Part shown: positions 1 to 10,029 of the stretch, piece by piece
How the letters are laid out: each line of letters opens with the position of its first letter
Position numbering within the stretch: position 1 is the stretch's first letter
Source of the DNA: Thermoproteota archaeon
GTDB taxonomy: Archaea > Thermoproteota > EX4484-205 > JAAOZP01
DNA length: 10,029 bases
Reading direction: 5' to 3'
Assembly: GCA_049700215.1 (NCBI GenBank)
Contig: JBNAVT010000049.1
Location: 1 to 10,029 of the forward strand
Notes under the pieces: model-generated
The model's database searches: none
Seen by the model: the letters and a program-made list of their open reading frames with translations, nothing else
What the model was told of the DNA's origin: nothing
Program-made: the position numbers and the translations under genes

Positions 1-20
1 CATCCCCGGGAGCAACGTTG

Positions 21-40
21 AAAAAGTTTTTAACCCTTTC
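21..40 (-). promoter_or_regulatory. Putative BRE/TATA promoter for a gene starting at or beyond the left edge
   Basis: Minus strand reads GAAAGGGTTAAAAACTTTTT. An ATG (plus-strand cat, 1-3) lies about 25 nt downstream, which suits a leaderless archaeal transcript. Confidence 0.45.
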
Positions 41-45
41 CCAGG

Positions 46-70
46 CTAGCCGGGGATCGTGAGCCACCTG
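46..70 (-). other. Displaced original 3' end of gatA (codons RWLTIPG-stop), separated from the gene by the IS
   Basis: Joining 763 to 70 on the minus strand gives GGT TTC AC|C AGG TGG CTC ACG ATC CCC GGC TAG, in frame with gatA, with the stop at 48-46. Confidence 0.8.
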
Positions 71-250
71 GTCAGCTACCCACGTCTGAAGTCATGGGCT
101 TGAAGCTCGGGGTGTTTTGATGCCATCTGCACCCTTCATCCTTCAAAACATGCCCGCTGACTGGGGCATTCCCCTGAGGAGTCTGACCCTTAGCTGGGTC
201 GGCTACTTGGGTCGCCCTCAGGGCGATGTTGAGGCTCGCCACCCTGTCCC
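51..250 (-). ncRNA. Predicted omega/reRNA of the IS (scaffold overlapping the tnpB 3' end, guide from flank 70 to about 51); boundaries approximate
   Basis: Inferred from established TnpB biology. The tnpB tail after the LNIA motif looks non-globular and runs through the right-end hairpin. Not directly demonstrable from sequence. Confidence 0.5.
71..102 (-). repeat. IS right end: guide CAAG, hairpin, TAGCTGAC terminus
   Basis: Minus strand CAAG-CCCATG-ACTTCAGA-CGTGGG-TAGC-TGAC, the typical IS200/IS605 right-end layout. Confidence 0.85.
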
Positions 251-719
251 TATCCGCCCCATAGCCGCACCTGACGCATCTGAAGTATTCATAGCCCCTC
301 CAGTTTCCTCTGCTGATATGCCCGCACCGCGGGCAGGTTTGGCTAGTGTAGTTGGGCTTGATTTCCTCAACAATCACGCCTTCTCTTTCAGCAACACATT
401 TCAAGGCGTGCCTGAAGAGGGCGTAGGGTATGCGGTTGACCTTCTTTCGACCCTTCTTGCTCCATTCGCCTTTACGCTTCCTCAGATGCCTAAGCCTTTC
501 AATAGCGATATTAGCGTTGAACTGTTTGGCAAGCTTGACAATTTCGTTGGCTATCTGCCACATCCTCGTCCTAACGTAGTTTCTTTGCTTTCCGCTGAGA
601 CGTTTGAGTTTAAGCCCCGCCTTTCCTTTAGAAGCGGTGTCTCGATACTCTTGAAGTTTGGCTCTTCTCTCTTCAAATCTGAACTGTCTTGTGGAAACGT
701 CCGCGCGCGCTGGTCGCAA
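72..719 (-). pseudogene. tnpB: N-terminally truncated TnpB (RNA-guided endonuclease, IS200/IS605 family)
   Basis: Retains a basic bridge-helix region, RuvC-II (NIAIERL), YTSQTCPRCG…FRCVRCG zinc ribbon and RuvC-III (ADRDRVASLNIA). The N-terminal REC/WED region and RuvC-I Asp motif are absent, and only the IS left end lies upstream. Confidence 0.85.
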
Positions 720-762
720 TTCCTCCCACGTCTAAAGAAGTGGGCTTCCTTGCGACAGTTTG
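713..762 (-). repeat. IS left end: guide GAAG, hairpin, enclosing GTCGCAA/TTGCGAC inverted repeat
   Basis: Minus strand CAAACT-GTCGCAA-G-GAAG-CCCAC-TTCTTTAGAC-GTGGG-AGGAA-TTGCGAC, immediately after TTCAC. Confidence 0.82.
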
Positions 763-2189
763 GTGAAACCGGTTTCAGCCTCGTAAGCGTAGGATAGCCT
801 GAGCAGCGTCGCCTCCTCAAAATGGTCTCCTGCGAGTTGAAGACCCACGGGGAGAGAGTTGACGAAGCCTGCTGGAACACTTACCGCGGGAAGCCCAGCA
901 AGGTTGACGGCGACTGTTTCAAAATCCATCATGTAGGTTTCCAGCGGCGACACTATTTCGCCTATTCTCCAAGGGAGGACGGGCATGGTTGGCGTAGCCA
1001 GAGCATCGAAGTCTTTAAACAGGAGCTTGAAATCGTCATGTATCCTCCTCCTGACTCTGCAGGCCTTCATGTAGAAATCCTCCTTGTAGCCTGCGGAAAG
1101 CACGAAGGTCCCTAGGAATATCCTCCGCTTAACCTCCTCTCCAAAGCCCTCGGTCCTAGTCTTGACAATCCTCTCCTCCCACTTGCCTTCGACACTTCCC
1201 CCGCCGTAGCGGATCCCGTCGAACCTCGCAAGGTTGCTTGAACACTCCGCCATAGCTATGATATAGTAGGCTGGGAGAGCATACTTCATGAAAGGAAACG
1301 ATACTTCCTCGACCGAGCACCCGGTTTTCTCGAGGACGCCTACAGCGTCGTAAACCCTTCTCGAAACCTTCTCGTCAATATTCTCGAAACCCTCCTTAAT
1401 AATGCCGATTCTAAGGCCCCTGGCTCCCCCTAGGGCTTCTTCAACATAATCAGGCGTCTCCCTGCTTGAAGAAGTTGAATCTCTTGAATCGCCGCCCGCT
1501 ATTACTTGAAGCAGCAGGGCTGTGGACAGCGTGTCCCTAGCCATAGGCCCTATTTGGTCAAGGCTGCTCGCGTACGCTATTAAACCGTAGCGTGAAACCC
1601 TGCCGTAAGTCGGCTTCAGCCCGACTACGGAGTTGAAGGCCGCGGGGTTCCTTATCGACCCCCCGGTGTCGCTTCCGAGAGCAAGCTCCACGGCCCCTGT
1701 TGCAAGGGAAACCGCGCTTCCGCCGCTGCTGCCCCCGGAGACCCTGGAATGGTCGAAAAAGTTTCTCGTCGGGCCGAAGAAAGAGGTTTCAGTGCTTGAG
1801 CCCATTGCGAACTCGTCCATGTTCGTCTTCCCAATAATAATGCCATCCTCCCTCTTTATCTTCTCGACAACAGTGGCGTCGTAAACCGGAACATAGTTTT
1901 CAAGCATTCTTGAGGCGCATGTCGTCCTTAGACCCTTCGTGGAAATATTGTCTTTAACCGCGACCAGGAGACCAGCTAGCCTGCCTGTTTTTCCACCAGC
2001 CATGATTCTACGCTTAAGCTCCTCCGCACTCCTGATGGCGCCCTCGCTGTCGACCGTTATGAAAGCATTCAGCCCTCTCGTCTCCTCGATTCTTTCAAGA
2101 GCCCTGTGGACTTTCTCAACCGGGTCGGCGGAATCAAAGCCCTGATCTAGAAAACCGTTTAACCCAGCACTTGGCCTGACACAAACCAT
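732..2189 (-). CDS. gatA: Asp-tRNA(Asn)/Glu-tRNA(Gln) amidotransferase subunit A
   Basis: Amidase signature VAVKDN, GKTNMDEFAMGSSTE, GGSSGGSA, GSDTGGSIRNPA; GatA-specific AECSSNLARFDGIRYG and GFGEEVKRRIFLGT; adjacent to gatC. The last 9 residues and stop come from the IS left end. The start overlaps the gatC end. Confidence 0.97.
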   Translation of the reverse strand: MVCVRPSAGLNGFLDQGFDSADPVEKVHRALERIEETRGLNAFITVDSEGAIRSAEELKRRIMAGGKTGRLAGLLVAVKDNISTKGLRTTCASRMLENYVPVYDATVVEKIKREDGIIIGKTNMDEFAMGSSTETSFFGPTRNFFDHSRVSGGSSGGSAVSLATGAVELALGSDTGGSIRNPAAFNSVVGLKPTYGRVSRYGLIAYASSLDQIGPMARDTLSTALLLQVIAGGDSRDSTSSSRETPDYVEEALGGARGLRIGIIKEGFENIDEKVSRRVYDAVGVLEKTGCSVEEVSFPFMKYALPAYYIIAMAECSSNLARFDGIRYGGGSVEGKWEERIVKTRTEGFGEEVKRRIFLGTFVLSAGYKEDFYMKACRVRRRIHDDFKLLFKDFDALATPTMPVLPWRIGEIVSPLETYMMDFETVAVNLAGLPAVSVPAGFVNSLPVGLQLAGDHFEEATLLRLSYAYEAETGFTKLSQGSPLL

Positions 2190-2455
2190 TTCTCATCCTT
2201 CTCTCCAGCGTTCTTGAAAACATCCTCCTCCGGAAGAGTTTCCCCAGGCTTATCTTCCCTCAGAGCCTCACTGAAACCGGTCACGTAAACCATCGGCTCC
2301 ACATCCAGCTGCAGGCTTCTCACAGTGTTGAAATAATCCAGTATCTCATTGACGTCTTTCTGTAGCCTCGCCACATCAGCCTCGCTCAGGGAGATTCTGC
2401 AGAGCTTCGCGTAATGCAGAACCTCTTCTTTCGAGACAACTATTTTTTCACTCAT
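2159..2455 (-). CDS. gatC: Asp-tRNA(Asn)/Glu-tRNA(Gln) amidotransferase subunit C
   Basis: 98 aa with the pattern SKEEVLHYAKLCRISLSE…ILDYF…LREDKP…VFKNA, directly upstream of gatA. Confidence 0.93.
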   Translation of the reverse strand: MSEKIVVSKEEVLHYAKLCRISLSEADVARLQKDVNEILDYFNTVRSLQLDVEPMVYVTGFSEALREDKPGETLPEEDVFKNAGEKDEKWFVSGQVLG

Positions 2456-2481
2456 CTGGACGAGCCCTATTTCTCTCCGGC

Positions 2482-2501
2482 TTGTCTATTTATCAGTTTC
2501 C
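2482..2501 (-). promoter_or_regulatory. Putative gatCA promoter (BRE/TATA)
   Basis: Minus strand GGAAACTGATAAATAGACAA, about 30 nt upstream of the gatC ATG. Confidence 0.5.
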
Positions 2502-2654
2502 TCCGGCAGCAGCGGCTTAAGCCGCTTCAGGAATGAGGCTGAGCATTCCAGTATTCCCGCCTCTGAGACGGCTAGCTCGCATCCTTAAAAAAGGACTACG
2601 CAAGCCCCCGGCCGCCGGTGTTTTTTAAAAGATTGTTGACGAGGATCCCTTAGC

Positions 2655-3275
2655 CTACTGAGTCTGGGAGCCGGTTTCCTCCATTTGCTGTCTAACGGCT
2701 TCAGGTATCTCTGGGAAGCTTGACTTCATTTTCTGAGAGGCTAGTATGGATGCTTCCTTCAATATCTGGTCTGCCTCGCTGTCAGGCGCAATATACGTCT
2801 CGTAGCCTGTGACTTCACCGGCCTGTATAAGCACCCTGTTCATCATGTCCTCCACCTGTCTGAGGCTGTCGGCAACCTGTGGCGCAACATTCCTTATCTC
2901 ATTCCCAACCCTGTTGACCACGTTAACAACCGGTCCAAGGATCTTCAGAGTCTCCTTAAAGTCTATCGTGTCTTCAAGCCTAAGTATTACTCTTTCAAGC
3001 GCAAGCCTGTTGCTCAGAATTATCTTACCCATTTTCCTTACCTGGGCAACCTCGTTCGCGTAGACTTGGGCGCGGGAATTGTCCCGCTCAATAAGAGCCT
3101 TCTCGACTTCTTTGAAAAGCTGCTCATCCCTCGTCTTAATCCTGTGGTAGATCCTGTCAAGGTTCTGCTCCTGAATCTTAAGCATCGCGACCGCTTCCCT
3201 CAATGCGTCTTGAAACGCGTGCTGGTCCGCTGGTTGCGGGGGTGGTTGAGGCTTCCTTCCGAATAACGGACTCAT
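2655..3275 (-). CDS. ESCRT-III / Snf7-family cell division protein (CdvB1/CdvB2-like, no winged helix)
   Basis: Snf7 core (RDEQLF…RAQVYANEVAQVRKM…LALERVILRLE), EADQILKEA helix and C-terminal MIM2-like FPEIP; divergent from the Vps4 gene. Confidence 0.9.
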   Translation of the reverse strand: MSPLFGRKPQPPPQPADQHAFQDALREAVAMLKIQEQNLDRIYHRIKTRDEQLFKEVEKALIERDNSRAQVYANEVAQVRKMGKIILSNRLALERVILRLEDTIDFKETLKILGPVVNVVNRVGNEIRNVAPQVADSLRQVEDMMNRVLIQAGEVTGYETYIAPDSEADQILKEASILASQKMKSSFPEIPEAVRQQMEETGSQTQ

Positions 3276-3299
3276 CTTTATCAGTATCCGCCTTATGTC

Positions 3300-3362
3300 G
3301 TGGCTTAAATATTTTTAGGAGTGCAATAAATCTTTACTTTAAGGTAGATAAAACTTAATAGG
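3300..3362. promoter_or_regulatory. Divergent promoters for the ESCRT-III gene and cdvC
   Basis: Minus strand AAAAATATTTAAGCC (about 3317-3303) and plus strand ATAAAACTTAATAGG (about 3348-3362), each 25-30 nt from a start codon. Confidence 0.6.
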
Positions 3363-3387
3363 AATGCTTTATTGGTGTCAAGTTGGA

Positions 3388-4551
3388 GTGGAAGTGTCCA
3401 GCTTGGGCTGGCGGAGCGAGCTTGAGAAAACTGCGATAAGAAAGGCGCATGAAGCAGTTACAATGGACAGTCAGGGAGACTACAAGTCTGCATTGAAGCT
3501 TTACAGGGAGACTATTGAAATACTCATGCAGCTTTACACGCTTACTGATAACGACAGTATGAAAAGGGTCTACTTAGACCGTATAAGGGAATATCAGAAA
3601 AGAGTTGAGAAGCTTGAAGGCCTTATGAAGAGGAAGGAAGAGGTTGTTTACATCAATAAAACCGAGACCAAGGAGGGGGAGGACAAGTGGCTCCAGGACG
3701 TTGTCCTGATAGAGAAGCCCTCCGTCAGGTGGGAGGACATCATAAACCTGGAGGAGGCTAAGAAGAAGCTGTATGTCAACGTGATCTTTCCAACCATCCG
3801 TCCGGATGTCTACAAGCTGCCCTGGTCCACAGGGATACTTTTCTACGGGCCCCCGGGGTGTGGGAAAACACTCTTGGCAGCAGCCTTGGCCAACAGTATT
3901 AGGGCGACCTTCTACCTAGTTAAAGCTTCTTCAGTGCTTTCTAAATGGCTTGGGGAATCTGAGAAGAATATTGCTAAGCTTTTCGAACACGCTAGGAGGA
4001 ACAGCAGCTCCAACGAGCCGGCTATACTTTTCATAGATGAGGTTGAAAGCATCGTTGGAACCCATATTTATGAAACAGGGGGCGAGTCGAGAGCTAGACT
4101 GCAGCTCCAGCAGGAGATGGATGGGCTTGCAAGCAAGGGCCGTGTGGAACACGTCTACGTGATAGCGGCGACGAACAACCCGTGGCTACTGCCGGACTCC
4201 TTCCTAAGAAGATTTGAGGAGCGTCTTTACGTTCCTCCTCCAGACGTTAGGGCTAGGAAGAAGCTCTTCATGTACTTCACGTCTAAGCTCAGCCTTAAGC
4301 CGCCGATAAACTACGATGAGCTGGCGCGGTTGACAGAAGGCTATTCTGCCCACGATATTGAAAACATATGTAAGGATGCTTTCAAAATGACTATTGAAGA
4401 ATTCTTCGAGCAGGGCGACCCGATGAAGGGCGACCCCAGGCCCGTTAGCATGGAGGACCTTGTTAAAGCTATTAGAAACAGGGGCAGCAGCATAAGCAGG
4501 GAGAGCCTGGCTAAAATGGAGGAATGGAGGAGGGAAAGGGGCTCTGCCTAG
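3388..4551 (+). CDS. cdvC: Vps4/CdvC AAA+ ATPase with N-terminal MIT domain (start probably GTG 3388 or 3394; ORF open from 3364)
   Basis: MIT helices (AIRKAHEAVTMDSQGDYKSALKLY…YLDRIREYQKRVEKL), Walker A GPPGCGKT, pore loop SKWLGES, Walker B LFIDEVE, SRH AATNNPW…FLRRF; flanked by two ESCRT-III genes. Confidence 0.95.
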   Translation: MEVSSLGWRSELEKTAIRKAHEAVTMDSQGDYKSALKLYRETIEILMQLYTLTDNDSMKRVYLDRIREYQKRVEKLEGLMKRKEEVVYINKTETKEGEDKWLQDVVLIEKPSVRWEDIINLEEAKKKLYVNVIFPTIRPDVYKLPWSTGILFYGPPGCGKTLLAAALANSIRATFYLVKASSVLSKWLGESEKNIAKLFEHARRNSSSNEPAILFIDEVESIVGTHIYETGGESRARLQLQQEMDGLASKGRVEHVYVIAATNNPWLLPDSFLRRFEERLYVPPPDVRARKKLFMYFTSKLSLKPPINYDELARLTEGYSAHDIENICKDAFKMTIEEFFEQGDPMKGDPRPVSMEDLVKAIRNRGSSISRESLAKMEEWRRERGSA

Positions 4552-5264
4552 ACAAACTCCTCCTCGCGTTTTACAACAACTTTCTTCTCCTTAATGAGCT
4601 CGTTCAAAAGGCTTTCAACCTCGTTCTTCTCCATTGAGAGGTCTTTCGCGCACCTCTCTATGTTGAAGGAATCCGTGTTAGCCTTAAGATATTCTAGAAC
4701 CTTCTGCTTAGCCTCCTCCCGCAGATCATGGCTCGGCACCTTTGGAAAAGTTGTTTCAAGCTTCAGCAGGGCAAGCCTCTCAGCCTCCTTAATCACCCTG
4801 TCAGCCTCAGTGTCAACGGTTTCCGCCCTGATGTCTGTCGTCCTCGTTATTATCGAAGCCGCTTCCTCAAGCCTAGCCTTAACCCCGACAAACTCTTTTT
4901 CAAGATTCGGCAGGGGGCTTGTCTCACTTATCCTGGAGAGCAGCCTCGCCAGCTGCGGAAGCATGCCGTACAGCTCCTCGGACTCCACCATGGTTTCAAG
5001 CCTGAGCTTAATGGTTAACACGAGCAGGCTAGACTGGTAGACAAGTTTAGCAACTCTTCTCAGCATGGCTATCTCCTCAGCATAGGCCTTAGCCCTGTCG
5101 TGATCATTCTTCTCGAGAAGAAGACTTATCTTCTCAAGATACTCACTATCCTTCCTCCTCAGGTTCTTAACTATCTTCTCAAGGTCGTAGGATACTAGCT
5201 CTATGTCGGTCAACGACTCCCTAAGCAGAAGCCTCACCCTCTCCATGCTGCCTGCGGGCTCCAT
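4548..5264 (-). CDS. cdvB: ESCRT-III cell division protein with C-terminal winged-helix-like domain (CdvB-type)
   Basis: Snf7 core (DRAKAYAEEIAMLRRV…IKLRLET), EADRVIKEA helix, MIM2-like FPKVP, then a wH-like tail KVLEYLKANTDSFNIERCAKDLSMEKNEVESLLNELIKEKKVVV. Its stop codon overlaps that of cdvC (shared CTAG). Confidence 0.88.
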   Translation of the reverse strand: MEPAGSMERVRLLLRESLTDIELVSYDLEKIVKNLRRKDSEYLEKISLLLEKNDHDRAKAYAEEIAMLRRVAKLVYQSSLLVLTIKLRLETMVESEELYGMLPQLARLLSRISETSPLPNLEKEFVGVKARLEEAASIITRTTDIRAETVDTEADRVIKEAERLALLKLETTFPKVPSHDLREEAKQKVLEYLKANTDSFNIERCAKDLSMEKNEVESLLNELIKEKKVVVKREEEFV

Positions 5265-5266
5265 CT

Positions 5267-5980
5267 TTACTGTCTTCTCCCCTCCAACTCTAATACTCCA
5301 CCGCTCGTACCCACATAAGCATAGCTTACGACGCCTTTAAAGATACCGTTCTCCAGGATCCCAGGGGTATTGTTGAAGAAACCATCCAGCCAGTCGAGAC
5401 TACGGTTCTCAGGCAGGGGGACGTCTATAATAGCGTTCCCAAAGTCTGTTATCACGGGCCCAACCTTACCGCTTCCAGTCCTGATCCTAACGGCTACTCC
5501 AAGAGTCTTTTCAACCCTCTTTTTAACCAGTAGCACCAGGTTTTGAAGAACCTCCACCGGTATTGGGAAGCCTGGCGGAATCCTTTCAACAATCTTCCTC
5601 TCATCCAGAACCAGAACCATCTTCCTTGAAACCGAGCTCAAAGCCTTCTCCAGAAGCAGAGCGCCTCCCCCACCCTTTATCGCGGTCAACGATTCTCTTT
5701 CAACAAGGTCCGCGCTATCTATAGTGACATCCACATGATCTATCTGGTTGAAGCTCGTGGTTTCCAAGCCTTCCTCCAGAATCCTAAACTCTATTTGACG
5801 AGACGACGGGACAAGCGAAACATCCCTGATGAGGCCCGCCCTTATTCTCTCAGCCAGCAGGGGTAGGAAAACATCCCCTATCGTGCTCCCGGAGCCAAGC
5901 CCTATGATCATCCCGGATTCAACATGAGCCAAGGCTTTCTCAGAGGCCAGCCTCCTCAGACCGGCGAGGCTTCCACTCAT
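5267..5980 (-). CDS. rpiA: Ribose-5-phosphate isomerase A
   Basis: IGLGSGST, IDSAD (variant of DGADE), IKGGGGALLLEK, PIPVEV, GKVGPVITDFGN and PGILENGIF motifs. Confidence 0.95.
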   Translation of the reverse strand: MSGSLAGLRRLASEKALAHVESGMIIGLGSGSTIGDVFLPLLAERIRAGLIRDVSLVPSSRQIEFRILEEGLETTSFNQIDHVDVTIDSADLVERESLTAIKGGGGALLLEKALSSVSRKMVLVLDERKIVERIPPGFPIPVEVLQNLVLLVKKRVEKTLGVAVRIRTGSGKVGPVITDFGNAIIDVPLPENRSLDWLDGFFNNTPGILENGIFKGVVSYAYVGTSGGVLELEGRRQ

Positions 5981-5984
5981 TTCT

Positions 5985-6398
5985 TCAAACCAGCCGGCTC
6001 AGGTTGCTCAGGGTCTCCCTGGCGACACGGTAAGCCCGGTTCAATTCTTCTTCAAGCCTCGACAAGTCGCCCAGGATGAAGTCGGGCTCCTTGGAAGCAT
6101 GCTTGCTGCCGCCGTTTAAAAGAGTAGGGGCCGCTGGAGGCTTAAACCCTACGCCGTGTTTCTGCGCGAGGAGAATGCTTCTCTTAACCATTTCAAGCCT
6201 GAGAGTCTGAAGAAGGTTCTCCAGCTTTTCAACACCCGCGTCAGGATCATTGCCCCCACCGTTTTTCAACTCTACAATCCTCCTCCTGACGGTTTTCATC
6301 ATCTCCATTATCTCAAGAACCTCGGAAACAAGGGTCTCGGACTCTGAGGACTCCTCGCCCTCGGCATCCTGTACAAGCATCTTTAGCATCATTTCCAC
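5985..6398 (-). CDS. Hypothetical alpha-helical/coiled-coil protein (137 aa), first gene of a probable operon with rpiA and cdvB
   Basis: Codon style like neighbouring genes, 4-nt gap to rpiA, AT-rich promoter-like sequence upstream (minus strand ATATAAAAAGCCATATAAG). No family recognised. Confidence 0.75.
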   Translation of the reverse strand: MEMMLKMLVQDAEGEESSESETLVSEVLEIMEMMKTVRRRIVELKNGGGNDPDAGVEKLENLLQTLRLEMVKRSILLAQKHGVGFKPPAAPTLLNGGSKHASKEPDFILGDLSRLEEELNRAYRVARETLSNLSRLV

Positions 6399-6750
6399 TG
6401 CAGGGACTGACTTATATGGCTTTTTATATTGGTTTCAATACAATCTTCTTTACTAGTTTATTCAGAAAACTTTTGGAGAAAGGATGTTTCCCACTAGGAG
6501 GAAGAGGTTTATCCACGTCAAACAGAGTTCTCGCGTTAAAATCAAGCAGCATCCTTATACAAACTGCGTATCCCTCCACGCAGCCAAAAAATCTAAAAAG
6601 CTCAAAAAATCCGTAAAACCGAAAATATTGCCGCTTGCTCCTAAGAGCTGGAGAAACCACTGGAAAACAGAAACGGTTCTCCCAGCGCACACTGCCGAAG
6701 GATCGTGCACCATCCTGCTTGCAGACAGGATGTAGCTCCTAATGGTGCAC

Positions 6751-6763
6751 GAAAAGCTTAAAG
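6751..6763 (+). promoter_or_regulatory. tRNA-Thr(GGT) promoter (BRE/TATA)
   Basis: GAAAAGCTTAAAG, about 25 nt upstream of the tRNA 5' end. Confidence 0.7.
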
Positions 6764-6786
6764 CCGACGGATAAGGAAAAACACCA

Positions 6787-6874
6787 GCCCTGGTAACTCA
6801 GTCTGGCCAGAGTGCCTCCTTGGTAGCACGTGCTGGAGAGGAGGATGTCACGGGTTCAAATCCCGTCCAGGGCT
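6787..6874 (+). tRNA. tRNA-Thr(GGT) with 13-nt intron at 37/38 (6826-6838)
   Basis: Acceptor GCCCTGG/CCAGGGC, discriminator U, D stem ACTC/GAGT, anticodon stem CCTCC/GGAGG with loop TT-GGT-A|A, T arm ACGGG-TTCAAAT-CCCGT. Relaxed BHB (TTGG:CTGG). Confidence 0.93.
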
Positions 6875-7190
6875 TGTTCTATATGGGTTTATGGGTTCGA
6901 ATCCTAACGAAGCTCGAATGCGTGCACTAGTTACGCTTAAAACGCCCTGGTTTGAATAATAGTGTGATGAACCATAAGCTTAGAAAGCGGTTCGTGGATT
7001 CGATGGAGTGTCTTCGCCAGATGGGCTTATCCCTGCTCCTTATTGGACAATAAAAATCTTTTCGAAACAAGGAAGGCTTACGCAGTTAAACCCGCATTTA
7101 CTCTTTTTCAATATATTGATTTTTACACGCTTGGAATTTAAACGAATATTTCGATTGGGCTCATACTAGCCTTATGATTCTATTTTTGGA

Positions 7191-7281
7191 AGCCTCGGGA
7201 GGGATTTGAACCCTCGGCTAACAGCTTCCCCGGCTCTTCTGCTTACAAGGCTGCCACTCTACCAGGCTGAGTTACCGAGGC
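7191..7281 (-). tRNA. tRNA-Thr(TGT) with 17-nt intron at 37/38 (7227-7243)
   Basis: Acceptor GCCTCGG/CCGAGGC, discriminator U, anticodon stem GCAGC/GCTGT with loop CT-TGT-A|A, T arm GAGGG-TTCAAAT-CCCTC. BHB with central helix CTTG:CGGG. Promoter CGAAAATGTTTTAAG upstream. Confidence 0.94.
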
Positions 7282-7322
7282 TTAACCAAGATTGTTCCAA
7301 AGGGGCTTAAAACATTTTCGTC

Positions 7323-7609
7323 TACAATGCTGGAAACGAGGGGACTGGGAAAACGTTGACTGTTTTCCCGGATAAGACACCCCCAACGATAAGCGGTGAG
7401 CCCCGGCAACGTCGATATCACGGTCGTTCAAAGATGCTTGACGTACAGACTATTTCATCATATTCTACGGGGCGATCGTGTTATTCGCAATACTCTCGGC
7501 ACGCGTTGTCCTACTCTTGAGGGGAAAACGCCTCCGCCGTAAGATTGTTCTAGTATTCCTCCGGAGAAAAACCTTACGAATGCTAAAAGTGTGTACGCGT
7601 GTTGATTGA
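7323..7609 (+). pseudogene. Decayed remnant of a membrane-anchored surface protein (Ig-like motif plus C-terminal TM helix and basic tail)
   Basis: One frame gives YNAGNEGTGKTLTVFPDKTPPTI. A shifted frame (7442-7609) gives TDYFIIFYGAIVLFAILSARVVLLLRGKRLRRK…*. No proper start, and stops lie immediately upstream of both segments. Confidence 0.55.
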
Positions 7610-7616
7610 GAGGAAA

Positions 7617-7690
7617 GGCCGCTGCCGAGATTCGAACTCGGACGAGTGGCTCCACAGGCCACCGCGCTGCCTGGTTACGCTACAGCGGCC
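7617..7690 (-). tRNA. tRNA-His(GTG), intronless, genomically encoded G-1
   Basis: G(-1)-GCCGCTG/CAGCGGC-C73, anticodon arm GTGGC-CTGTGGA-GCCAC, T arm CCGAG-TTCGAAT-CTCGG. Promoter TAAAAGTTTAAAAC upstream. Confidence 0.96.
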
Positions 7691-7786
7691 GTTTAATACG
7701 GGTTCTCGTTAAACGGGTTTTACGGTGTTTTAAACTTTTAGCTCTCCCACTCTCCGCTCACCCAGTAGTCTGGATGGATTGGCTTA

Positions 7787-7806
7787 GGGGAAAACATTAT
7801 ATATCG
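7787..7806 (+). promoter_or_regulatory. tRNA-Ala promoter (BRE/TATA)
   Basis: GGGGAAAACATTATATATCG, about 25 nt upstream of the tRNA. Confidence 0.7.
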
Positions 7807-7826
7807 TGATGGAAAACTATTCGCCG

Positions 7827-7913
7827 GGGCCGGTAGTTCAGTGGTAGAATGTCCGACTTGCACTCGGAATGGGTGACCCCGAAGGGTCGTGGGTTCGAGT
7901 CCCACCCGGTCCA
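7827..7913 (+). tRNA. tRNA-Ala(TGC) with non-canonical 15-nt intron at 44/45 (7870-7884)
   Basis: Acceptor GGGCCGG/CCGGTCC with G3:U70, A73, anticodon arm TCCGA-CTTGCAC-TCGGA, T arm GTGGG-TTCGAGT-CCCAC. Removing TGGGTGACCCCGAAG restores variable loop AGGTC. Followed by a T-run. Confidence 0.93.
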
Positions 7914-7987
7914 TTTTTCGAGGATTATTTTTCACTGTCTGAACACTCTTCGAATCGTGAGGGATGCTTAACCTTTTTCTCTTTCAA

Positions 7988-8902
7988 CTAGCTTATTTGG
8001 AAGGCTCGAGCAGGGTTCTTGACTAAAACCTCTTCCACCAGGCTCCGGCTGAACCCTTCCCTCAGCATGAGGGGGATGAAATGCTTCACCAGGTAGCTGT
8101 ACGGCCTGATAACGCCTCCCCTGTTCTCGCCCACGTTGTACCATCCTGCATCCTGAGACAGGAGAAGCCTGCTGCTGAAACCGTTCTCAACCACGAGCCG
8201 TATCAGGTTTAAAGCTTTAGCCGACGTGGCTTCACTAATGCCGTCGTATTCAACCCACGCGCCCCGCCTCAGTATTTCGAGATGATAATTCCAATCCTCC
8301 TCGGAGTCACAGTGCGCGACTATCACCTTGGCGGGGTCAAGACCCTCCTCGCTGGTTATGTTCAAAAGGTCCATCGCCGCCACGCCGCTGGCGGTGTGGC
8401 AGACTATCGCAGCTCCAGTCGATAGGCTGCATCTTGCAGCCGCCCTCACGATTTTCTGCTGTATCGGGATTATGCGACCCGGGTTCACGGCGATCTTCAC
8501 GAATCCTGCTTTAACGAATGTCCCCTCGATTCCTTCCTCGACCTCGCTGATCCACATGCCGGCCAACTGTTCAACCGGCTGTTCAAAAGCATACTTGGGA
8601 AGGAAGGGCTCCTTGTAAAGGCCAGTGTTGGTTAGAATATGGATGCCTGAAGCCTTCGAAAGCCTGGCGAGCAGCAGCGGGTCTCTCCCGATGAACGCGG
8701 GAGTACAGTCTACGAATCCTGAAACGCCAAGCTGCTTAACCTCGTTCAAGTATGGCAGCATAACGTTGAAGACCTCCAGGGGGTCATAGCGGTCCCTACT
8801 AACCCTTTCTGCCCCTATGAAATCACAGAGTATGTGCTCATGCACCAGTGTTAGCCCAAGCTCGTCGGGGTGGATGTCTCCCAACACTGTCCGTATCTTC
8901 AC
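7988..8902 (-). CDS. Phosphotriesterase-family (PTE/PHP-like) amidohydrolase / lactonase; start probably GTG 8902, ORF open to 9007
   Basis: IRTVLGDI…LGLTLVHEHI (HxH), VDCTP…GRD, GFVK (bridging Lys), CHT, AHCD and LLLSQDAG metal-ligand motifs, ending LVKNPARAF. Confidence 0.92.
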   Translation of the reverse strand: MKIRTVLGDIHPDELGLTLVHEHILCDFIGAERVSRDRYDPLEVFNVMLPYLNEVKQLGVSGFVDCTPAFIGRDPLLLARLSKASGIHILTNTGLYKEPFLPKYAFEQPVEQLAGMWISEVEEGIEGTFVKAGFVKIAVNPGRIIPIQQKIVRAAARCSLSTGAAIVCHTASGVAAMDLLNITSEEGLDPAKVIVAHCDSEEDWNYHLEILRRGAWVEYDGISEATSAKALNLIRLVVENGFSSRLLLSQDAGWYNVGENRGGVIRPYSYLVKHFIPLMLREGFSRSLVEEVLVKNPARAFQIS

Positions 8903-9060
8903 GGGACATTTGTGGCGGCTAGAGGGGTAATTAGACTTTAGGGTTGATGGGGAGGGTGGAGCCAGTCTGCAGCCAGCCTGGTTTTCCACTGGAGAAGAAT
9001 CTTTCAAAGACCTCTGCCGGAAGCGGTTCCCCCAGGCCTTTTAAACAGTCGCCAGCCGTT

Positions 9061-9078
9061 AGAAATGCTTAAATAAGC
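9061..9078 (+). promoter_or_regulatory. rRNA promoter (BRE/TATA)
   Basis: AGAAATGCTTAAATAAGC, about 180 nt upstream of the 16S 5' end and followed by a structured leader. Confidence 0.7.
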
Positions 9079-9251
9079 GTCTGGTTCAATATACTCCGGA
9101 TCCACACTGGAACGGCGTGCCCCTCGGACGCTGGTGCAAAACCAGGTATGATAAGGGGGCTCCACGTGTGGATACACGATGTTGAGGACTCGAAAGAGTC
9201 TGATGCTGTTGAACATGTAAGGAAAGTCCACCGTCCAAGACCGTAACTCCC

Positions 9252-10029
<778 letters not shown>

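Follow-up and report, generated by a model that had tools for sequence, protein, structure and literature searches.

An internally deleted IS200/IS605-type element supplies the last residues and the stop codon of gatA in a hot-spring archaeon

Introduction

The closest described relatives of the locus reported here are the insertion sequences (ISs) IS608 of Helicobacter pylori and ISDra2, the paradigms of the IS200/IS605 family, which are mobilised by the Y1 transposase TnpA. Both insert 3′ of a tetranucleotide without duplicating it, carry subterminal hairpins with a four-nucleotide guide 5′ of each hairpin foot, and have a tnpB that lies towards the 3′ side and extends into the right end. 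In IS608 the guides and the cleavage motifs base-pair in an exact register. The distance from motif to hairpin foot in IS608 is 19 nt on the left and 10 nt on the right, and the cleavage motifs are read by base pairing with the guides (PMC3201880, in excerpt). For the IS200/IS605 family it has been published that scarless excision can restore a gene the element had interrupted and that the joint so formed is targeted by a guide RNA (PMC10055086, in excerpt), and 3′ sense-overlapping RNAs have been described for archaeal genes of the IS1341 type (PMC4615843, in excerpt). Here we describe a 692-bp element of this family in a stretch of 10,029 nucleotides from a Thermoproteota archaeon (contig JBNAVT010000049.1, positions 1 to 10,029; hereafter the window), where it lies in the 3′ end of gatA and provides the gene with a different C-terminus.

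The element shares with IS608 and ISDra2 the insertion 3′ of a tetranucleotide without duplication, the subterminal hairpins, the guides and the place of tnpB, and as in IS608 the left motif lies outside the element and the right one inside it, at similar distances (18 and 8 nt here, 19 and 10 nt in IS608; PMC3201880, in excerpt). It differs from them in its motifs, which are TCAC and TGAC as against TTAC and TCAA, in having no tnpA, a gene found in none of the 17 genomes of the genus, and in the internal deletion of its tnpB. In IS1341-type archaeal elements, as in the full-length relatives of the present one, a left end, tnpB and a right end follow each other without tnpA, and the covarying last ~165 nt appear to fit the RNAs of IS1341-type genes (PMC4615843, in excerpt); the copy in the window differs in keeping only the C-terminal half of tnpB. 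With palindrome-associated transposable elements (PATEs) and minimal IS200/IS605 derivatives it has in common that the ends are kept and the interior lost, so that any mobility would need a transposase in trans (PMC10055086, in excerpt), but its deletion is partial, leaving 692 bp with half of tnpB. A last parallel is an assay by Meers et al. with a mini-transposon in lacZ, in which excision by TnpA restores the frame and the donor joint (transposon-adjacent motif, TAM, plus flank) is the target of the guide RNA (PMC10055086, in excerpt). That assay was engineered with TnpA supplied, whereas neither TnpA nor a working TnpB was found here, and gatA has been re-tailed rather than inactivated.

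What the locus adds is modestly new: the end motifs of a TnpB family from uncultured archaea, and a stop codon donated by an IS and hidden from annotation. Standard annotation reports an "intact" gatA beside a short tnpB, when the last residues and the stop actually come from a mobile element and the true end of the gene is 692 bases away. The original prediction, made from the letters of the window, had anticipated such an annotation, and a 163-aa gene call for the fragment (P0081) does occur in the protein collection. In addition, TCAC, TGAC and the guide tetranucleotides of this archaeal TnpB family could help the reconstitution of such nucleases.

The element lies in the 3′ end of gatA

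As it now reads, gatA is a gene of 485 codons on the minus strand (732..2189). Its product was identified by Pfam (Amidase, E 2e-142) and by the NCBIfam equivalog TIGR00132, which scored 581.3 bits against a cut-off of 481.1 and covers residues 24–473. The partner gene gatC lies directly upstream (2455..2159) and gatB on another contig of the same genome (C28; 457.7 bits against a cut-off of 314.8), so that a full-length gatA model match is accompanied by both partners. Residues 1–476 are native. Residues 477–485 (KLSQGSPLL) and the TAG stop come from the left end of the element: after ...GGT TTC ACC the frame continues AAA CTG TCG CAA GGA AGC CCA CTT CTT TAG. The protein encoded by the open reading frame 2189..732 ends in ...ETGFTKLSQGSPLL (...AYEAETGFTKLSQGSPLL), directly before the stop. 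This agrees with the claim of the original prediction that gatA runs into the element and ends in KLSQGSPLL at a TAG at 734–732. The same prediction had the left-end hairpin supply the stop, and the TAG indeed sits at the boundary between loop and 3′ arm, with two bases at the end of the loop and one at the start of the arm.

The native 3′ end of gatA is stranded on the far side of the element, at 46..70 (minus strand). Read in the frame left by TTCAC, window positions 70..46 give the last base of the Thr codon, RWLTIPG and a TAG stop (48–46), that is, (T)RWLTIPG and stop. To place this end among homologous genes, 40 relatives were searched for GatA and the 3′ end was read for every locus returned, 16 of them from the same genus. 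All 16 same-genus proteins end in F[TNA][KRSE]W[LF]..., and the element is absent there from every one. In the eight closest relatives (L003–L010), whose GatA is 79–92% identical to that of the window (92% in the closest), the tails read, for example, RWLHSPG, KWLRTPG or KWLRIPSA before the stop, which is TAG in these eight as well. The tails are followed by ...gggaaagggttaaaaac..., which is the minus strand of window 45..26. When aligned with the relatives, the DNA flanks ...gaaaccggtttcac on the left and caggtggctcacgatccccggctagcctgggaaaggg... on the right abut with no gap and no duplication. Tails and flanks are thus collinear once 71–762 is taken out, and the expectation that this removal would restore a native-type end from 46–70 was borne out.

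The match to relatives goes far beyond chance, and by this comparison the insertion in gatA is real; it is probably recent. TTCAC is present at the homologous place in 7 of the 14 same-genus loci printed by a DNA pattern, which missed 2 of the 16. In a metagenome scan with generic GatA peptide patterns, 79 of 80 loci were distant GatAs; the only close one (L086, 88%) has an empty site resembling that of L009, and the same-strain empty allele was not recovered among these 80 loci.

Limits and end motifs of the element

The element occupies 71..762 on the minus strand and consists, in this order, of a left end, a deletion junction, the C-terminal half of tnpB, an omega-RNA-like region and a right end. 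Its limits were set by homology and by metagenome contigs that skip it. Homology to full-length relatives ends exactly at window 71 (...GTGGGTAGCTGAC), and the flanks beyond this point all differ. ACCA (4 bases) occurs at both junctions, which allows the limits to shift by as many as 4 bases, and the alignment of the metagenome contigs gives the same 4 bases. At the other end, the element abuts the target and TAM, TTCAC (763..767, core TCAC at 766–763), which falls in the Phe and Thr codons of gatA, with the left-end cleavage site directly 3′ of it. TCAC adjoins the left end in all six distinct loci of the element family, the window counted. The insertion left no target duplication, and the flanks together with the six loci substantiate the earlier assignment to an IS200/IS605-type insertion 3′ of a short target.

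By folding and by comparison with relatives, the left end (712..762) has an outer stem (757–750/719–712), the guide GAAG (748–745) and an inner hairpin made of CCCACTTC (744–737), the loop TTTA (736–733) and GACGTGGG (732–725), with one T.C mismatch. The right end is part of a region (71..235) delimited by a consensus fold and by aligned right ends; it contains the guide CAAG (102–99), a hairpin (98–91, loop 90–87, 86–79) with one mismatch and one G.T pair, and the end motif TGAC (74–71). TGAC terminates 11 of 12 aligned right ends, and CAAG at the 5′ side of the hairpin foot is invariant among them. The cleavage motifs TCAC and TGAC differ by a single C/G change, and the guides GAAG and CAAG by the complementary G/C change. 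On the left, TCAC precedes the element, with the hairpin foot 18 nt 3′ of it; on the right, TGAC belongs to the element and ends 8 nt from the foot. The sequences at the termini, CAAACTG... and ...AGCTGAC, form no inverted repeats, and the hairpins show compensatory changes among relatives. Insertion 3′ of a tetra- or pentanucleotide without duplication, subterminal imperfect palindromes and four-nucleotide guides that match the motifs, three hallmarks of IS200/IS605, are therefore present. The stop codon of the TnpB frame, TGA (74–72), is itself part of the terminal TGAC, an arrangement kept in most relatives.

Both end hairpins are weakened in the window copy and fold little or no better than shuffled sequences. 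As single-stranded DNA they reach z-scores of −1.78 (left) and −0.21 (right), compared with −5.15 and −3.05 for the ends of the relative L071. The 3′ arms of the two hairpins (725–732 and 79–86) are the identical octamer GACGTGGG, whereas the 5′ arms differ (CCCACTTC on the left, CCCATGAC on the right), and both stems are therefore imperfect. The identity of the 3′ arms may have arisen by end-to-end conversion or by chance.

The element is single-copy in its genome, where no further copy and no parent copy was found; the search returned only three to four distant TnpB relics (29–38% identity) and a 30-mer on contig C20. This 30-mer (C20:41511–41540) is 90% identical to the left-end hairpin region and has the same loop with TAG. 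It is 285 bases away from an end of its contig, no tnpB can be recognised behind it, and it may mark the terminus of a different element that was not assembled. Among the 40 relatives there was no close copy either, the best match having 35–38% identity.

An internal deletion leaves the C-terminal half of tnpB

Left-end homology extends to about position 711 and tnpB homology starts at 701. Between them, at the deletion junction (702..711, minus strand), lies a GC-alternating filler of 9 nt, gcgcgcgcg (710–702). The homology resumes at residue ~197 of relatives of ~404 aa, so that ~640 bp between the left end and mid-tnpB, including the first ~196 TnpB codons, have been lost. The remainder is an open frame of 215 codons (72..719, minus strand), identified by Pfam PF07282 (TNB domain, 68.3 bits), by NCBIfam NF040570 (guided_TnpB, 103.3 bits against a cut-off of 100) and by its relatives. 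It keeps the RuvC-II Glu (AIERL), a CxxC...CxxC zinc finger and the RuvC-III Asp (ADRDR). The WED and REC domains and the RuvC-I Asp (GVDINS column) are gone, and the D-E-D triad of a complete nuclease is thereby broken. Since the RuvC-I Asp went with the first ~196 codons, this copy encodes no nuclease, and the N-terminal half of TnpB was not found elsewhere in the genome.

The longer relatives encode TnpBs of ~404 aa that are 73–82% identical to the remnant and belong to uncultured archaea labelled Bathyarchaeia, Methanomethylicia and Nitrososphaeria. In these the left end lies directly upstream of tnpB with no tnpA between. Judged from this comparison, the element is best classed as a tnpB-only (IS1341-like) member of IS200/IS605 with an internal deletion, and it would never have carried a transposase. 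Other members of the tnpB family have different internal deletions (P0088, P0090). One locus (L065:3895–4064, on an Atabeyarchaeia-labelled chromosome) has only the last ~110 bases, the omega-RNA-like part and the right end, in common with the family and unrelated sequence before them, and so resembles a solo right end.

The gatA frame and the frame of the TnpB remnant are identical in phase and are separated by the TAG and four codons. Read-through of the TAG would give a GatA–TnpB remnant fusion of ~705 aa. The shared phase is likely a one-in-three coincidence.

Occupied and empty sites co-occur in a metagenome

The hot-spring metagenome run X1 contains 0.88 of the sampled words of the window and is its probable source; X1 is therefore not independent data. 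We used its Logan contigs (k = 31), which come from another assembler than the SPAdes-type contigs of the genome. They cover both element junctions with no differing letter, one contig spanning 26–170 (depth 8.09) and another 408–790 (depth 9.28). A further contig of 73 nt (depth 6.16) joins 68 to 761, skips exactly 692 bases and thus represents an empty site. Within 26–68 it differs from the window at two letters. Because both alternative contigs begin at 26 and the contig common to them stops at 55 (k = 31), one difference is at 56 and the other within 57–68. The 55-base overlap between the genome contigs C76 and C49 marks the same branch point, and the stub next to the element varies at the strain level.

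In the native tail, position 56 is the second base of the Ile codon, and the tail encoded by the empty allele is therefore slightly different. With two differing letters in the stub, the empty-site contig is not a simple excision product of the window copy, and it looks like an ancestral allele carried by a sister strain in the same community. Alternatively, the stub may have changed since the insertion. Contigs, which cannot phase the wider flanks and in which bubbles from single-nucleotide differences may have been popped, fit either reading. The depths in X1 (10–11 for the flanks, 8–9 plus 6 for the two alleles) are too noisy to bear on whether the alleles share a strain background.

An empty site with the same 692 bases skipped is also present in run X3 of another study, in a relative of ~92–93% identity. 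In runs X2 and X5 the element is represented only by diverged relatives with other surroundings, which have no bearing on the gatA locus. One more X1 contig leaves the window after 170; the 38 bases that follow have no match and start with a GCGCGCGC run resembling the filler at 702–710, and the contig may come from a second, shorter deletion derivative in the sample.

Consequences of the exchanged GatA tail

Taking together the demonstrated insertion with its limits, the internal deletion, the swapped tail and the co-occurring empty site, we consider it likely that gatA was hit at its very end by a strain-specific, tolerated and inert tnpB-only insertion. A tnpB-only (IS1341-like) element would have entered the coding strand just 3′ of TTCAC, at gatA codons 475–476. 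The conserved GatA core was left in place, the seven residues RWLTIPG gave way to the nine residues KLSQGSPLL, and the TAG in the left hairpin came to end the frame. The copy has lost the first ~196 tnpB codons; its end motifs are intact and its hairpins weakened. With no Y1 transposase found in the genome or the genus, it is most likely stuck. Tolerance, inertness and transcription of the element by read-through from gatCA are what we infer from this arrangement.

Tolerance is suggested by the place of the junction, which comes after residue 476. The gatA model ends at 473, alignments to solved GatA chains end at 472–476, and beyond the junction neither length nor sequence is alike across families. 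The junction is past both the model and the alignable structure, and the catalytic core is therefore untouched. The original prediction spoke of a tolerated insertion in a normally important translation gene; its first half fits the intact core, and its second half is softened by a probable AsnRS beside the AspRS and GatCAB.

Several observations weigh against a tolerated and inert insertion. The Trp two residues past the junction is kept in all 16 same-genus relatives and lost in the new tail, so the swap may not be neutral. TCAC, GAAG, CAAG and TGAC, the four short motifs required by a Y1 transposase, are all intact, and the remnant frame of 215 codons has stayed open. The genome is a metagenome-assembled genome (MAG) of 94.6% completeness in 85 contigs, and as repeats often remain unassembled in such data, a missing TnpA is no proof of absence; TnpA provided in trans by a virus, a plasmid or an unbinned contig could still excise the element. 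Furthermore, the occupied and the empty allele co-occur in X1, and contigs alone cannot tell whether they share a strain background.

The loss of this Trp is also where a different account of the locus begins, according to which the tail swap cripples GatA, the allele persists only through redundancy, with a probable AsnRS taking over, and gatA is on its way to being lost. Profile scores indicate that both routes to Asn-tRNA may be present in the genome: an AsnRS-like gene (C37:9720–10958), an AspRS of the non-discriminating type (C1:1904–3139; NF003483, 502 bits) and GatCAB, with gatB at C28:1569–2948. The genome may thus not be fully dependent on GatCAB. The AsnRS-like paralogue scores 370.9 bits with TIGR00457 (cut-off 342.6), but the call is ambiguous, as its best match, NF003037 with 409.8 bits, stays below the cut-off of 414, and with 363 bits it exceeds the cut-off of 353 for the AspRS(Asn) model NF003483 as well. 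Against a gatA on its way out, the remaining frame of 476 codons is uninterrupted, with 92% identity to the closest relative, both gatC and gatB are intact, gatA is retained in 16 of 16 genus genomes, and neither the family models nor the alignable part of the solved GatA chains extend to the swapped residues. We therefore regard a crippled GatA as rather unlikely, though it fares best among the alternatives to a tolerated insertion.

Mobility of the element

Y1 transposases were searched for with PF01797, which was positive in 6 of 14 control genomes. None was found in the 17 genomes of the genus, that of the window (94.6% complete) included, whereas four of the five genomes with full-length tnpB relatives have one. 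TnpA is thus found neither in the element nor in its genome, and the element is non-autonomous rather than an autonomous IS. A second copy with the same deletion junction was not found in the genome or in the protein collection, and nothing therefore shows that the derivative ever moved.

The original prediction went further and saw in the locus a reversible two-allele switch of the GatA C-terminus. The element would be mobilised by a Y1 transposase acting in trans, and the population would flip between KLSQGSPLL and RWLTIPG. Scarless excision is established chemistry for the family (PMC10055086 and PMC3201880, both in excerpt), the four motifs TCAC, GAAG, CAAG and TGAC are intact, and the X1 contig with the empty site (depth 6.16) stands alongside those with the IS junctions (8.09 and 9.28). 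A search of the contigs for the two junctions that the prediction had named was only partly in its favour: the empty site is there, with its two differing letters, and the circle junction of right and left end (back-joint) is not among the contigs, which could easily miss it and cannot show its absence. The rest of the evidence speaks against a switch. A Y1 transposase was found in 0 of 17 genus genomes, both hairpins are weakened and half of TnpB is dead. The empty-site contig differs within 56–68, and the break of the SPAdes contig at the 55-mer 1–55 points to the same branch. Neither alleles interconverting in one clonal lineage nor a catalyst was found, and no functional difference is known between the two tails. 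A switch is thus improbable, and this part of the original prediction is not supported. In a translation gene, a genuine C-terminal switch driven by excision would be of note. Since scarless excision and targeting of the joint are published, even a switch would be known chemistry; a single narrow literature search by title and abstract returned no paper on an IS605 excision switch.

The omega-RNA-like region

The last ~165 nt (within 71..235) gave a consensus fold over 11 sequences with 38 pairs, 18 of them with compensatory changes, in a region that is also coding, so that its conservation is confounded. No Rfam family matched the element in an Rfam scan. Given the coding overlap and the missing Rfam match, the fit of these ~165 nt to an omega RNA scaffold is only suggestive. 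By analogy with the published TnpB mechanism (PMC10055086, in excerpt), window 46–70 would be the guide stretch carried by an omega RNA of the element.

From here a far-reaching scenario can be drawn, which we consider very unlikely. The gatCA transcript would carry a complete orphan omega RNA guided by the native end of gatA, and any cognate TnpB or TnpA entering the cell on a virus or plasmid would make the alleles interconvert. An empty site, having TTCAC and the target, would be cut, which would drive the IS allele through the population, and the changes in the empty allele (56–68, in the first 15 bases by the TAM) would reflect escape of the target from the guide.

Genomic context of the locus

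The window starts where contig C49 starts, and only 70 bases past the element fall inside it. The end of contig C76 (C76:3385–3439) is identical to window 1–55, a 55-base overlap as expected from a SPAdes-type graph with k = 55, and the context of the locus therefore carries on into C76. The position near a contig start, with a contig break in the stub, might suggest that the element was mis-joined to gatA at a repeat, but an artefact of this kind is barely conceivable, as the separate k = 31 assembly of X1 (another assembler, possibly the same sample) crosses both junctions without a single differing letter, these junctions coincide exactly with the TCAC and TGAC motifs of the family, and the single-copy element offers no repeat to mis-join.

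Positions 1..45 (minus strand) align with relatives as the native spacer 3′ of gatA, ending in the ATG (3–1) of the next gene. This gene encodes a class-V aminotransferase, is co-directional with gatA and continues on C76. A conserved box, aaagggttaaaaac, at 39–26 lies ~25 nt 5′ of the ATG and is kept in the eight closest relatives. Its sequence and position suggest that it is probably the BRE/TATA-like promoter of the aminotransferase gene, which would give a leaderless mRNA. The box is 25 nt beyond the insertion and untouched by it.

The host is a hot-spring archaeon with Cdv cell-division genes in its genome. Within window 2655–6398 there are CdvB-like genes at 3275..2655 and 5264..4548, CdvC at 3364–4551 and, in addition, rpiA at 5980..5267. 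Four tRNA genes of 73–91 nt follow at 6787–7913, several of them long enough for introns, and from 9252 to the end of the window (10029) the sequence matches an archaeal 16S rRNA model over its first 759 positions.

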